From a virus (lineage: Duplodnaviria > Caudoviricetes): a DNA stretch of 64,000 nt. Positions 57,718 through 62,989 of this stretch are shown here, piece by piece (position 1 is the first letter of the stretch; every line of letters starts with the position of its first letter). Position numbers and translations under genes: made by a program. The notes beneath the pieces were generated by a model. That model saw only the letters and a list, made by a program, of their open reading frames with translations, did not search any database and was not told the DNA's origin. The DNA lies in the IMG/VR virus record IMGVR_UViG_3300024259_000011; one strand, written 5' to 3'.

Positions 57718-57747
57718 TTAGACGTTGGGACAGCCAATTTTATTCAA
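57718..57747 (-). promoter_or_regulatory. TTGAAT-N17-CGTCTAA promoter-like element, copy 1
   Basis: Conserved boxes at fixed spacing. Confidence 0.7.
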
Positions 57748-57766
57748 TGAAAAGTGGAAATATCTG

Positions 57767-57842
57767 AAAAAAAGTGCGGGTCCAAGGGCGGCGCTGCGTT
57801 GGATTTAGAGAGAGAGCGCAGCATATGCGACCCTCGACCCGC
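57767..57842 (-). terminator. Long hairpin with U7 tail; probable intrinsic terminator and possible sRNA
   Basis: GCGGGTC/GACCCGC, AGGG/CCCT and GCTGCG/CGCAGC stems followed by ACTTTTTTT on the minus strand. Confidence 0.65.
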
Positions 57843-57861
57843 GTGAAGTGGTTGGGCTCCC

Positions 57862-58128
57862 TTAGGAGCCCTTGACGGACCACAGATCGTGCTTCTGTGA
57901 GTCTGTCTGTGGTGTGCGCTCGGCAGTACCGAAACGCGGTCCAGCTTTCTTGCTCAGTGCCTCGACCAACGGATCGAGCGAGCCAAGTGCTGACAGTCGC
58001 GCATGCACGTCCATCACAAAAGGTACATCATCGTTCCGCGTCACTGTGTCCCACAGCGCGATGGCTGCATCTGGGTCACTGGCTAGCAGGTCAGCGATGA
58101 CCTTTGAATAGTTTTCTGCTACTGACAT
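57862..58128 (-). CDS. Hypothetical protein
   Basis: 88-aa ORF with AAGGAG RBS. Confidence 0.7.
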   Translation of the reverse strand: MSVAENYSKVIADLLASDPDAAIALWDTVTRNDDVPFVMDVHARLSALGSLDPLVEALSKKAGPRFGTAERTPQTDSQKHDLWSVKGS

Positions 58129-58187
58129 TTTATATGTCTCCTTTGAAAGTTTAATGATTCTAGGGGGTTACCGCTAGGGCAGAGCAT

Positions 58188-59285
58188 TTAGCTCTGCGAC
58201 CCAGCAAGAACCTCCACGATGAATGAGGTAACAAGGGTTCCATCACTGGCAGTTGACTGGTGCAACTTGACACAGTTCTGAACCTCGTTGCCCTCAGCAC
58301 CGGCGACGGTCCACAGCTTCATAGCAACCTCGGAAGGAAGGCTAATAAAGTAATCAGCAAGGTTCTGGATCTGCTCGGCAGTCAGTTCTTCCTTGAAGAT
58401 CTCAAGTGCTTCCATCTTTTCGACAAGCGCACTGTGATCGTTGATGCCAAAGTCCTTGGTACGGTCAATCTGACCGTCATCAATGATGTTCTCAACAGTC
58501 ACTTGAGCCTCATAAGTCTTGATAAAGTCTTGAAGCGCAACAGCAGCCTCAAACCCAACGAACGCGGTCGCAAGGTTAAAGATTGTGCCAGCATCCTGCT
58601 TGATGGACTCCTCGGCAAGCAGACCCGCACTAGACAGGCACTCGCTGAGACGATCCCATGAGCGACGAGAAGGGTAAACCTTGTTTGGCTCAAACTCGCC
58701 TTGATGCTCAAGGTGGTTACGGTTGGTGTTAATAAAGTCCCAAACCAGACCATCAACATTGTCCTTGCCCCAAGCAAGCCAATCTTCAGTAGTAGGCTCG
58801 ACATCGAACACGGTCCAGCGGTCAAGCTCAGCCGGGTCCATTTCGCCAACTTGGTATTGAGCGCCATGCTCTCCACCGTTGACAGCAGCGAAGATCAGAG
58901 TCTCCGGGTGCAAGGTCCAGCCCGCAATCTTGCGGCTATCGGTAAGCTCAAAGATCCCTTGACGGACCTCCATCGTCGCACGATCAACCTCGTCCAAGAA
59001 CAGGACAACAGGCTCGGTGCATGCTTGAATCAGCCAGCTAAACGGGCGAAACTGCGAACAGCCAACACCGTTGACCTCCGCGAGTTCTGCGGAAGGCATA
59101 CCGAGAAGGTCACCTTCTGTCATCTGAGAAGCACGACGCTCCACAACAGGCAGACCGGCAGCACCGGCAAATTGGTAAACCACTTGTGACTTGCCGACAC
59201 CGTGACGACCGCGCAGAAGCACAGGCTTACGGACGCGGGTGACGTGGGGAACGACGCTTTGGAAGGTCTTAAAATCTACAGGCAT
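58188..59285 (-). CDS. MoxR-like AAA+ ATPase
   Basis: GRHGVGKS Walker A, LFLDEVDRA Walker B, AAVN, MDPAELDRW and PSRRSW. Confidence 0.9.
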   Translation of the reverse strand: MPVDFKTFQSVVPHVTRVRKPVLLRGRHGVGKSQVVYQFAGAAGLPVVERRASQMTEGDLLGMPSAELAEVNGVGCSQFRPFSWLIQACTEPVVLFLDEVDRATMEVRQGIFELTDSRKIAGWTLHPETLIFAAVNGGEHGAQYQVGEMDPAELDRWTVFDVEPTTEDWLAWGKDNVDGLVWDFINTNRNHLEHQGEFEPNKVYPSRRSWDRLSECLSSAGLLAEESIKQDAGTIFNLATAFVGFEAAVALQDFIKTYEAQVTVENIIDDGQIDRTKDFGINDHSALVEKMEALEIFKEELTAEQIQNLADYFISLPSEVAMKLWTVAGAEGNEVQNCVKLHQSTASDGTLVTSFIVEVLAGSQS

Positions 59286-59349
59286 TTTTCTCTCTCTCTT
59301 TTTGGGTGGGCATCCCTGCCCGGTTGTTCTCTCTAACTAACTACATTAG

Positions 59350-59379
59350 TTAGACGTATTCGGAACCAGTTTTATTCAA
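59350..59379 (-). promoter_or_regulatory. TTGAAT-N17-CGTCTAA element, copy 2
   Basis: Conserved boxes. Confidence 0.7.
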
Positions 59380-59443
59380 TCTTTTTTGATCTTTTCTGAA
59401 ATAAAGTCGGTTTTCATGCCGTTCTCTCTCTTTGGTACATCTA

Positions 59444-59473
59444 TTAGACGTATGGGGCGCTGGTTTTATTCAA
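59444..59473 (-). promoter_or_regulatory. TTGAAT-N17-CGTCTAA element, copy 3 (tandem with copy 2)
   Basis: Conserved boxes; followed by an AAAGAGAGAG leader and a 13-codon ORF (59376-59417). Confidence 0.7.
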
Positions 59474-59508
59474 TCTTTCTTAAAGAAAGTTGATCTTTTT
59501 TCTCATGC

Positions 59509-61243: not shown

Positions 61244-61272
61244 TTAGACGGCTGGGCTTCGGTTTTATTCAA
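61244..61272 (-). promoter_or_regulatory. TTGAAT-N16-CGTCTAA element, copy 4
   Basis: Conserved boxes with a spacer one base shorter. Confidence 0.7.
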
Positions 61273-61344
61273 TGAAAAGTGATCTTTTTTTCACTTTTCT
61301 TCAAATATCCTTAATAACTAGGTTCAAAGCCGGGAATGGGGCGA

Positions 61345-62061
61345 TTACTCGCCCGATGCAGCGTCAATATCTCTCCAGTAGTAGTAGTCTCTCGACTCGC
61401 CCTTCTTAAAGGGGCTGTGGCTCAATTCGGAAGCCTTCAGGTCAAGACTCTGTTCCTCCCAATCACCGGGCAGACTTTGATTGATCTGGTCAACAGTCAC
61501 CGGAGCCACAACCGAATAGCCATTATATGTAGACTCATCCTGCTCATCGATCTGCATGCTAGTCGGACGCTGCGCCGGGTTCAATGGTCGCAGTCTCGCC
61601 TTCACGCACTTATCTTTCGGGTGAACGAATCGGCACTCGATAGATTCAACCAGATACATAGACTTATCGCCGTATGATGTTCTTTCAACCATCGCGCCGA
61701 TGCCGATGCCTTGCTCAATCATCATAGACCGTGCAGCAGCGCGAGTCTCAGCGGTTAGCACCGCGTAAGTTGTAATATCGCTAGCAAGTGTAGTACACTT
61801 GCGGCGGTTGTGACCGGATTCCTTGCAGTAGGAACACTTGCGACCCCACGATTCATTCCGGCGTGTACGTTTCGCGCCAGTCTCAGGGTTCACACCCGTC
61901 ATCCTAGCAACCTGCCTTGCATAGTATTCGACATGCGCGCCTTCTTGCTTAGCGCTTTCAAGGCGCTTCTGCGCACGCTCCAGCTTGACCGGGCATGTGC
62001 GCGAGTTGTGTCCTTCGTTGTAGCAGTAGCCGCATCTGATTGTTCCGTTGTAATTTCCCAT
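61345..62061 (-). CDS. Protein with two CCHC zinc knuckles
   Basis: CGYCYNEGHNSRTC and CSYCKESGHNRRKC. Confidence 0.8.
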   Translation of the reverse strand: MGNYNGTIRCGYCYNEGHNSRTCPVKLERAQKRLESAKQEGAHVEYYARQVARMTGVNPETGAKRTRRNESWGRKCSYCKESGHNRRKCTTLASDITTYAVLTAETRAAARSMMIEQGIGIGAMVERTSYGDKSMYLVESIECRFVHPKDKCVKARLRPLNPAQRPTSMQIDEQDESTYNGYSVVAPVTVDQINQSLPGDWEEQSLDLKASELSHSPFKKGESRDYYYWRDIDAASGE

Positions 62062-62094
62062 TTAGTTTACCTCTCTCTTTGCTTGGTACATCTA

Positions 62095-62124
62095 TTAGAC
62101 GTGTCGGGGGCTGGTTTTATTCAA
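62095..62124 (-). promoter_or_regulatory. TTGAAT-N17-CGTCTAA element, copy 5
   Basis: Conserved boxes. Confidence 0.7.
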
Positions 62125-62211
62125 TCTTTTTGAAAGAAAAGTGATCTTTTTTTCGATCTCTCTCAACCCGATCCCCTACTGACTCTTCGATTATACCACA
62201 GGTTAATAATA

Positions 62212-62490
62212 TTACCGGACAGAAAATGTCCGACCTGCAAGCTCCCCTGAAAAGGCAGGTTCAACCTCGATTTCTTCAAGGGGCAACCAGCCTTGCCAGC
62301 TTTCACGCCCACCTTTGCCGTTGCTAGCGCGGCGCGTTTGCGCTTCCAGCCTCAACGCAGGGCGATGACCCATGCAAAGCACGGAGTTGCGAGCATCACA
62401 GACGCGGAACAGCGGTCCATGCTCGCGGATACGGTTCTTCGTGCGGCTGCACGCTTTGTCGTTCCACTTTAGTTTAATAAAATCAGCCAC
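62212..62490 (-). CDS. Hypothetical protein
   Basis: 92-aa ORF coupled to the upstream gene. Confidence 0.65.
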   Translation of the reverse strand: MADFIKLKWNDKACSRTKNRIREHGPLFRVCDARNSVLCMGHRPALRLEAQTRRASNGKGGRESWQGWLPLEEIEVEPAFSGELAGRTFSVR

Positions 62491-62707
62491 TTACGACCTC
62501 CAAATCATGCGCCAGCATCCTGCGGGTTGCTCTACCAGATGTGCGACCGATGAATTTAACGGTGTGAATGGAGAACTGCCCGTTGGCGGGGCAATCCTCG
62601 TCGATCAGGTCTGGCGAGGTTTCTTCAACCTTAATGATCAGAGCCATCGAGCCCTTGGGAACGCCAATCATGGCGCGACTTGTGCAGATTAAATCACCTA
62701 CTTTCAT
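62483..62707 (-). CDS. Small KVGD-type beta-barrel protein
   Basis: MKVGDLIC...ALII...VKF...DLEVVS. Confidence 0.7.
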   Translation of the reverse strand: MKVGDLICTSRAMIGVPKGSMALIIKVEETSPDLIDEDCPANGQFSIHTVKFIGRTSGRATRRMLAHDLEVVSG

Positions 62708-62861
62708 TTACCAACTCCATAAAGCCGCTACACTCCACAATGGGCTTGCTCCTGTTGTTCCACAGCACCCACACATCACCAGATTTAGCCCATCGCTTTA
62801 TGCAAGGCGCAGTAACAATGCCCAATATACCTTTGTGTCTTACTAAATCACCGACCTTCAT
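62694..62861 (-). CDS. Small KVGD-type beta-barrel protein (55 aa)
   Basis: Hand-translated MKVGDLVRHKGILGIVT...VWVLW...MELVNESR. Confidence 0.7.
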   Translation of the reverse strand: MKVGDLVRHKGILGIVTAPCIKRWAKSGDVWVLWNNRSKPIVECSGFMELVNESR

Positions 62862-62932
62862 GCTGATAGCTCCGCGACAAGACCAAGTAGACCGATGGTC
62901 GTTGAAATAATCATAAAAGTAGCAATAGTCAT
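62858..62932 (-). CDS. 24-aa hydrophobic peptide MTIATFMIISTTIGLLGLVAELSA
   Basis: First ORF after element copy 6; ATGA overlap with the next gene. Confidence 0.55.
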   Translation of the reverse strand: MTIATFMIISTTIGLLGLVAELSA

Positions 62933-62959
62933 AGTTTCCCTCTCTTTGTTGCTTACTTA

Positions 62960-62989
62960 TTAGACGTATGAGGCTTTCATTTTATTCAA
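62960..62989 (-). promoter_or_regulatory. TTGAAT-N17-CGTCTAA element, copy 6
   Basis: Conserved boxes. Confidence 0.7.

Follow-up and report, generated by a model that had tools for sequence, protein, structure and literature searches.

Putative ECF-type promoter cassettes in the early region of an uncultured marine T4-like phage, and the sigma factor that may read them

We analyzed a 64-kb window (64,000 nucleotides of IMG/VR record IMGVR_UViG_3300024259_000011) from the ~190-kb genome of an uncultured marine T4-like phage. Toward its right end, the window carries six copies of the element TTGAATAAAA-N12/13-CGTCTAA. These are probably promoters of the extracytoplasmic function (ECF) type, set inside repeated cassettes that resemble the PeSL (promoter early stem-loop) cassettes of other T4-type phages. 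An ECF sigma factor of the host may well be what reads them. The most interesting lead came from related phages, in which a split between CGTA-type and CGTC-type -10 boxes tracks the presence or absence of a phage-encoded ECF sigma.

Six intergenic elements lie on the coding strand

An exact scan of the 64 kb found the motif at 57718, 59350, 59444, 61244, 62095, and 62960 (start positions), always on the minus strand, for an expected count of 0.00 and a maximum of 0 in dinucleotide-preserving shuffles. An earlier note on this DNA, prepared from the letters alone, had listed the same six copies, leaving the strand unstated, and had seen none left of 57.7 kb. Both observations held, the second even at two mismatches, as scanning the entire window at that tolerance yielded no further copy. 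Essentially every gene of the window lies on the minus strand, which is thus the coding strand for all six copies, and transcription therefore runs from 64 kb toward position 1. All six copies are intergenic, at 26–60 nt from the downstream start codon. Their C-rich spacer is 12 nt long in the copy at 61244 and 13 nt long in the other five. Each copy contains TGAATA-N15/16-CGTC, that is, the bipartite layout of ECF promoters, with an AAT/AAC-type -35 box, a CGT(C) -10 box, and a gap of ~16–17 nt. Named after their start positions and given in the direction of transcription, the copies are as follows.

P62960, 62960..62989, minus strand: 13-nt spacer; heads a 24-codon membrane peptide and a chain of small SH3-like open reading frames (ORFs), 62212–62861
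P62095, 62095..62124, minus strand: 13-nt spacer; heads the gene of a 238-aa CCHC zinc-knuckle protein, 61345–62061
P61244, 61244..61272, minus strand: 12-nt spacer; heads a DUF2201 metallopeptidase/VWA gene, 59994–61217, and two small ORFs
P59444, 59444..59473, minus strand: 13-nt spacer; followed only by a 13-codon mini-ORF, 59376–59417
P59350, 59350..59379, minus strand: 13-nt spacer; heads an AAA+ (MoxR/CobS-like) ATPase gene, 58188–59285
P57718, 57718..57747, minus strand: 13-nt spacer; last of the array; heads a conserved 266-aa gene, 56874–57674

P59444 and P59350 stand in tandem, separated by the mini-ORF MKTDFISEKIKKD (59376–59417, minus strand), whose stop codon runs into the -35 box of P59350. 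Recombination between promoter repeats has probably removed a cassette here and left this ORF as a remnant. The 238-aa protein (61345–62061, minus strand) bears two retrovirus-style CCHC zinc knuckles and is found family-wide, including in members that use sigma70-type promoters, sometimes in two copies.

The elements match ECF promoters and fail as sigma70 promoters

In Sinorhizobium meliloti, the SMc01022 promoter, which depends on RpoE1/RpoE3 and has a mapped start, reads GAATAAAA-N13-CGTCTAAT, and the rpoE4 and SMc01418 promoters show a GAATAA-N-CGTCT/TGTCT architecture with equal spacing (PMC6180224, Table 1). The phage core matches the SMc01022 promoter in both boxes and in spacing. By analogy with S. 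meliloti, transcription is expected to start ~5–7 nt past CGTCTAA.

A base-by-base comparison with sigma70 promoters was carried out on 35 CGTC-type sites from five phage contigs. In a sigma70 reading, the -10 box would be TCTAAN, located 18–19 nt from TTGAAT. The would-be -11 base was C in 35/35 sites, and the would-be -7 base was T in 11, G in 11, C in 9, and A in 4. This indicated that both defining bases of a sigma70 -10 box are absent. As a matter of fact, a sigma70 scan of the window listed none of the six copies. The earlier note had seen canonical sigma70 promoters left of 57.7 kb instead, and the scan recovered two 12/12 and three 11/12 matches there.

27460–27488, minus strand: sigma70 promoter, 12/12 match to TTGACA-17-TATAAT
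24922–24950, minus strand: sigma70 promoter, 12/12 match to TTGACA-17-TATAAT
39047–39075, minus strand: sigma70 promoter, 11/12 match with TG extension
30123–30151, minus strand: sigma70 promoter, 11/12 match with TG extension
47446–47474, minus strand: sigma70 promoter, 11/12 match with TG extension

These promoters precede tRNA, transfer-messenger RNA (tmRNA), and accessory genes on the coding strand. Finding perfect sigma70 promoters in the same phage indicated that the host sigma70 is canonical and that the motif constitutes a separate promoter class. Collectively, the SMc01022 match, the failed sigma70 reading, and the contexts of bacterial ECF sigma genes described below lend good support to the ECF-type assignment made in the earlier note. 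That note had drawn its comparison with the Bacillus subtilis sigM/W/X boxes. Promoters of the ECF26/RpoE type match more closely.

The promoters are embedded in a longer cassette

Aligning the six copies revealed a longer common cassette composed of an A/T-GATC box, the -35 box, the C-rich spacer, the -10 box, and a purine leader. Five of the six copies have one or more GATC, inside an A/T-rich box, in the 40 nt that precede them, and the upstream boxes hold six GATC in 240 nt vs ~0.9 expected from the window average. This box is likely a UP-like element or a Dam-sensitive site. The -10 box is followed by TAGATGTACC in three copies. A purine leader of the AAAGAGAGAG type is present in 5/6 copies, and leaders in the window include the AGAGAGAG form. 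The upstream GATC/A-tract box and the purine leader that the earlier note had ascribed to most copies were thus recovered, together with the seventh leader that it had placed at the window end.

62125..62165, minus strand: example of an A/T-rich box with GATC sites (AAAAAAAGATCAC...), of the cassette type seen in 5/6 copies
62062..62094, minus strand: example of the common leader (TAGATGTACCAA..AAAGAGAGAGG) with a ribosome-binding site
63943..64000, minus strand: seventh leader, AAAGAGAGAGG plus ATG; its promoter would fall past the window end
57692..57735, minus strand: two-tier stem-loop around the -10 box of P57718, -24.8 kcal/mol, z -3.8, 0/200 shuffles as good
59322..59367, minus strand: equivalent stem-loop around the -10 box of P59350, in which TCTAACTAA pairs with TTAGTTAGA, z -2.6

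Both stem-loops are two-tiered and bring the -10 box into pairing with the leader; in that of P57718, the spacer is paired with the leader as well, and TCTAACTC with GAGTTAGA. The P59350 stem-loop is retained, via compensatory changes, in the orthologous copies of a related contig, G001. Folding against shuffles gave no significant stem-loop at the other four of the six window copies. A CCCC...GGGG pairing around the -10 box was noticed by eye in copies of two further related contigs, G002 and G005.

The motif precedes ECF sigma and envelope genes in bacteria

A search for the exact phage motif across ~186,000 genomes of bacteria and archaea returned single matches only, mostly chance-like, and neither an array nor a prophage. 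In an Omnitrophota metagenome-assembled genome (MAG; L119), an ECF sigma ORF begins 8 nt after the exact motif. In a Thermodesulfobacteriota MAG (G012, C143), TTGAATATTT-N12-CGTCTAA lies ~14 nt before an operon for an ECF sigma and a zf-HC2 anti-sigma, and a second copy of the motif precedes the next exported-protein gene. The L119 and G012 sigmas are 39% identical to each other and score best against RpoE and SigW models. Hence, the arrangement typical of autoregulation, with the motif before an ECF sigma/anti-sigma operon, is found in bacteria (the G012 operon, the L119 sigma) and not in this phage lineage.

About 18 MAGs assigned to Syntrophales, Thermodesulfobacteriota, and "Deltaproteobacteria" carry the exact motif before homologous envelope genes, whose products are a Tyr/Gly-rich lipoprotein, a DUF4124-like protein (recognized by eye), and TolC-like and FecR-like proteins. 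Copies per bacterial genome were 1–4, vs 0–1 for a reversed control. The presence of the motif before both ECF sigma and envelope genes showed that bacteria possess an ECF sigma family for which this exact motif is the cognate promoter and which has an envelope regulon.

ECF-type arrays are scattered among sigma70-type relatives

Megablast found no close cultured relative in INPHARED, and a search with the gp55-like sigma protein of the window reached only ~30% identity in its nearest matches, from Flavobacterium and Microcystis phages. The relatives used here are metagenomic fragments. The AAA ATPase led to 236 related IMG/VR contigs, many of them from genomes of 185–205 kb. Among the 80 nearest relatives, only G001 (L248) has a motif array and G006 (L327) has one copy at its contig end, the remaining 78 being devoid of the motif. 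Many other near relatives exhibit CTTGACA-N17-TGnTATAAT at the same positions, for example, directly upstream of the AAA ATPase gene, and these sigma70-type cassettes often come with a similar purine leader. Counting sites at up to two mismatches, strand-specific arrays of 9, 26, and 29 sites were found in G001, G002, and G004, respectively, and all except one of the G004 sites are on the coding strand. The motif itself occurs 0–1 times in four complete sigma70-type genomes vs 19 times in G004.

A quick AAA-ATPase tree with SH-aLRT (Shimodaira–Hasegawa-like approximate likelihood ratio test) support placed the window and G001 as sister (SH-aLRT 96) to nine sigma70-type phages. G004, L235, and L239 shared a long branch next to 33 phages that are sigma70-type or unclassified, and G002 formed a long outlying branch. 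Sigma70-type phages thus separate the CGTC-type lineages on this tree, and the scattered distribution pointed to ECF-type cassettes having replaced sigma70-type ones in several separate lineages. By analogy with PeSLs, mobile cassettes would allow such replacement. In the minus-strand segment 922–1174 of G002, five promoter-like copies with CGTCAAA follow one another ~60 nt apart with no ORF between them, as bare tandem promoter units.

When genes were screened for restriction to motif-bearing lineages, only the UvdE nuclease and a weak IrrE-like peptidase emerged, and no transcription factor. The gene of the UvdE UV-damage endonuclease is present in G001 (46398–47384), G002 (38800–39783), G004 (120380–121294), and G006 (81% identity match) and is missing from two complete sigma70-type genomes. 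Its immediate upstream neighbor in G002 and G004 is an ECF-type promoter, and promoter and gene look like a unit that travels among these phages as a cassette. The peptidase is a 164-aa protein with a weak IrrE/ImmA-like metallopeptidase match (G001 22576–23070, also in G003, G004, and G007), missing from two sigma70-type genomes. Proteases of the IrrE/ImmA family cleave transcription repressors.

A sister lineage encodes its own ECF sigma

G004 (98% complete) encodes a canonical ECF sigma with the Pfam r2 and r4_2 regions (TIGR02937, 62.5 bits vs a cut-off of 42.9), and the gene lies immediately after the last promoter of a dense array. In this phage, the -35 box is as in the window and the -10 boxes are mostly CGTATAA or CGTATTA. 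Counts of A-type vs C-type -10 boxes were 30 vs 5 in G004, 19 vs 0 in L239, and 11 vs 4 in L235. A protein database search yielded 63 homologues of the G004 sigma, at 50–99% identity, from marine metagenomes; a related-locus search with the single phage sigma matched only itself. The contexts that we inspected were all alike, in the order DUF2201, AAA ATPase, about ten small ORFs, sigma, and NUDIX. Comparison of the phage sigma with its homologues in motif-bearing bacteria gave only 24–27% identity, so no donor was identified.

In L235, L239, and L244, a conserved hairpin and a sigma70 promoter, TTGCAT-N17-TGtTATATT, precede the sigma gene. In G004, the -35 box of this sigma70 promoter has degenerated, with a CGTCTAA-type promoter located upstream. 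By analogy with phiEco32, the sister lineage is a classical cascade, with host sigma70 acting first and the phage sigma next.

The 17-nt hairpin CGGACATWTTCTGTCCG also occurs in the window, at 62216–62232 (minus strand), followed by an extended -10 sigma70-type box, TGGTATAAT, at 62190–62198, ~66 nt upstream of P62095. Other copies are at G001 4964–4980, L235 9876–9892, L244 1858–1874, and G004 143900 and 144635. The same module of hairpin and sigma70 promoter is the one found directly upstream of the phage ECF sigma gene in the sigma-bearing lineage. As a speculation, the window module could mark the former site of a phage sigma gene.

Searches for an ECF sigma in the window and its CGTC-type relatives were negative

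We looked for an ECF sigma in the window and in the six CGTC-type contigs G001, G002, G003, G005, G006, and G007, using tblastn with all 63 sigmas and six-frame searches with a family hidden Markov model (HMM), and found none. Six-frame searches of the window and of the CGTC-type contigs with PF04542 and PF08281 returned only the gp55-like late sigma. Likewise, Pfam, PHROG, and NCBIfam scans of the window ORFs returned no ECF sigma, only the gp55-like protein. By synteny, the window, G001, and G005 jointly span the whole gene circle, and both the window and G002 extend across the syntenic sigma slot downstream of the AAA ATPase, with no sigma there. The G006 and G007 assemblies break inside the array, so that the absence of a sigma from them is less informative. 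A phage-encoded ECF sigma was found only in the CGTA-type lineage, and in neither the window nor its CGTC-type relatives, the search covering 64 kb of this genome.

Two window proteins were considered as specificity factors, the gp55-like protein (3586–4278) and the 238-aa zinc-knuckle protein, and both were rejected, being present in complete sigma70-type relatives. A trypsin-like serine protease is also encoded in the window (53109–53885, minus strand). It is membrane-anchored and PDZ-less, matches Pfam Trypsin_2 and, weakly, DegS/HtrA, and was found in none of the relatives examined, which makes its gene an accessory one specific to this phage. DegS-like freeing of a host ECF sigma by this protease was therefore rejected as a general mechanism.

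Which sigma factor reads the cassettes?

In the scheme that we favor, the canonical sigma70 promoter at these early-region positions would have been exchanged for an ECF-type one in this lineage. Host core RNA polymerase, together with a host envelope-stress sigma of the RpoE/SigW/ECF26 kind, would read the cassettes, which would head the transcription units of a hyperplastic early region. That a host ECF sigma reads these PeSL-like cassettes is a proposition that we hold with middling confidence. What favors it is that no phage sigma turned up in CGTC-type phages, that bacteria have sigmas with exactly this promoter, and that the phylogeny is scattered. The separation of CGTC-type lineages by sigma70-type phages fits adaptation to a factor supplied by the cell.

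Several points weigh against this scheme. The absence of a sigma in CGTC-type phages was established on a composite of fragmentary contigs plus 64 kb of this genome. Moreover, the sigma-bearing lineage (G004, L235, L239, L242, L244) shows that the promoter family can depend on a phage sigma. In the bacteria, the enrichment was modest, with 13 motif vs 5 control matches in a sample of 301 Thermodesulfobacteriota genomes; such weak phylum-wide enrichment implies that only a subset of the phylum has the regulon. Anti-sigmas normally keep ECF sigmas inactive, so that a lytic phage whose early genes rely on one would be awkwardly placed. Last, promoter activity, start site, and cognate sigma are all deduced from sequence, and the host sigma has no name, the host being uncultured. 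The earlier note had proposed that a host ECF sigma drives the early genes. This is plausible, as no ECF sigma gene was found in the window or in the CGTC-type relatives, but a sister lineage encodes its own ECF sigma. The same note had offered an injected phage factor as another source, and nothing supports one.

The main alternative, a real one although less probable, is that host sigma70 transcribes a phage sigma or specificity factor, after which the cassettes fire as delayed-early or middle promoters, the gene lying outside the window or being too divergent to recognize. If a phage sigma made after infection can serve this promoter family, the window promoters would indeed be delayed-early rather than immediate-early. 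Consistent with such a factor, G004 encodes a bona fide ECF sigma, with 63 marine homologues of which the inspected ones share the phage context downstream of DUF2201/AAA; a sigma70 promoter stands before the sigma gene in L235, L239, and L244; the contigs that bear a sigma use mainly CGTA-type -10 boxes; four complete sigma70-type relatives have neither that sigma nor more than 0–1 motif copies; and the perfect sigma70 promoters of the window could drive a gene of this kind. Against such a factor, in the window and the six CGTC-type contigs, the tblastn and family HMM searches were negative, the PF04542/PF08281 searches yielded only the gp55-like late sigma, and the syntenic slot, where covered (window and G002), was without a sigma. 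Both the gp55-like and the zinc-knuckle candidates recur in sigma70-type relatives, and the only larger gene restricted to motif-bearing lineages is that of the UvdE repair nuclease.

It is very improbable that the elements are unusually strong early promoters for host sigma70, made of TTGAAT, an 18–19-nt spacer, TCTAAT, and extra conserved bases as in T4 early promoters. TTGAAT agrees with TTGACA at 4/6 positions, the -10 box of G004-type phages can be read as TATAAT or TATTAT, most relatives bear sigma70 promoters at orthologous positions, and the A/T-rich box upstream is UP-like. Yet the key -11 A is replaced by C in all 35 CGTC-type sites, with -7 unconserved, the spacer is 1–2 nt over length and strictly fixed, and elsewhere this phage uses perfect TTGACA-17-TATAAT promoters and TG extensions. 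Besides, in bacteria, the motif occurs 1–4 times per genome before envelope and ECF sigma genes and not genome-wide. We give still less credence to the idea that the elements have no promoter role and are repeated binding or recombination sites between genes, for a phage regulator, a cassette-shuffling recombinase, or as an RNA-processing signal. Stem-loops do enclose two copies, with compensatory changes in relatives, cassettes are gained and lost at the repeats (the 13-codon remnant ORF, a gene order that differs between G004 and the window), and assemblies of relatives break within the arrays. What speaks for promoters is the bipartite form with fixed spacing and variable spacer sequence, the strict coding-strand orientation at a fixed distance to ribosome-binding sites, the replacement of sigma70 promoters at orthologous positions, the identity to a mapped ECF promoter, and the placement before bacterial sigma genes. 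A role in recombination is, moreover, compatible with promoter function, as in PeSLs.

Returning to reading by a host ECF sigma, we tentatively propose a broader view, somewhat more doubtful than likely: the sigma class of the cassettes may have been rewired among close ocean T4-like phages, with the CGTCTAA lineages feeding on a host stress ECF sigma and the CGTA/CGTC difference acting as an orthogonality switch between a phage-owned and a host-owned sigma. If so, phage early transcription would draw its power from the stress response that infection provokes or from a stress sigma with constitutive activity.

Other signals and genes of the window

Left of 57.7 kb, the remaining intergenic regions are enriched in a CTATTTA-type motif. 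Four tRNA genes (Asn, Lys, Gly, and Arg-TCT) and a phage tmRNA with the tag ANNNNHFDSVRLAA are located at 28678–29861 and 37765–38136 (minus strand).

Comparison with known systems

The ECF26 promoters of S. meliloti, read by RpoE1/RpoE3/RpoE4/RpoE6, have a common -35 box GAATAAA(A), a 13-nt gap, and a -10 box CGTCT(A/C) (Lang et al. 2018, PMC6180224; Bastiat et al. 2012, PMC3511301). Compared with them, the phage -35 box has a TT extension. The S. meliloti regulons comprise a handful of promoters with the sigma and anti-sigma genes adjacent, whereas the phage has at least six copies in 5.3 kb and no sigma gene was found. Because the sigmas behind the exact bacterial motif score best as RpoE/SigW, ECF26 membership of the cognate sigma is not established.

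The B. subtilis sigmaW/X/M promoters differ in the -35 box, which is TGAAAC there vs TTGAATAAAA in the phage. Work by Qiu and Helmann in 2001 reportedly described an AAC/AAT-type -35 box and a 16–17-nt gap to CGT for these sigmas, with the base after CGT setting specificity (CGTA/CGTC/CGAC). The -10 specificity split of sigmaW and sigmaX resembles the CGTA/CGTC split of the phages, and we take the resemblance as a lead only.

Lytic phages of the textbook kind begin on the host housekeeping sigma and bring in their own factors later. The CGTATAA sister lineage, with a sigma gene behind a sigma70 promoter and a cognate array, matches the cascade logic of phiEco32 gp36 (PMC12276001). SPO1 gp28 (PMC13401047) belongs to a phage sigma cascade of the same logic. 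The sigma of the sister lineage is a canonical two-domain ECF sigma, unlike the phiEco32/SPO1 type. The window lineage departs further from phiEco32, having no detectable sigma of this kind and bipartite promoters, whereas the gp36 promoter is a single AATGTA box (PMC12276001).

Our literature search found no paper on a T4-like phage with early accessory genes behind 6–30 envelope-stress-type promoters and no matching phage sigma. If reading by a host sigma is true, phage gene expression would be tied to the stress state of the host. The family occurs in three states, with cassettes of the sigma70 type, of the ECF type plus a phage sigma, or of the ECF type with no such sigma, and is thereby a natural experiment on the co-evolution of promoters and sigmas and on their spread by cassette shuffling. 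The motif offers a handle on the host as well, whose genome is predicted to encode an RpoE/SigW-like sigma with TTGAATA(W)3-N12/13-CGTCTAA at its operon. In the sister lineage, the phage ECF sigma and its CGTA promoters could serve as a compact orthogonal expression pair.

As for the cassettes, the PeSLs of the T4-type phages RB49 and phi1 combine a repeated strong promoter of sigma70 consensus with an AT-rich tract and a stem-loop (Arbiol et al. 2010, PMC2839356). The window promoters differ in being ECF-type and in showing a significant stem-loop in only two of six copies. Like PeSLs, they recur as cassettes preceded by an AT-rich tract, to which some copies add a stem-loop over the -10 box; each promoter is followed by a Shine–Dalgarno sequence and a start codon; and they are concentrated before small ORFans in a hyperplastic region, at sites of modular shuffling.

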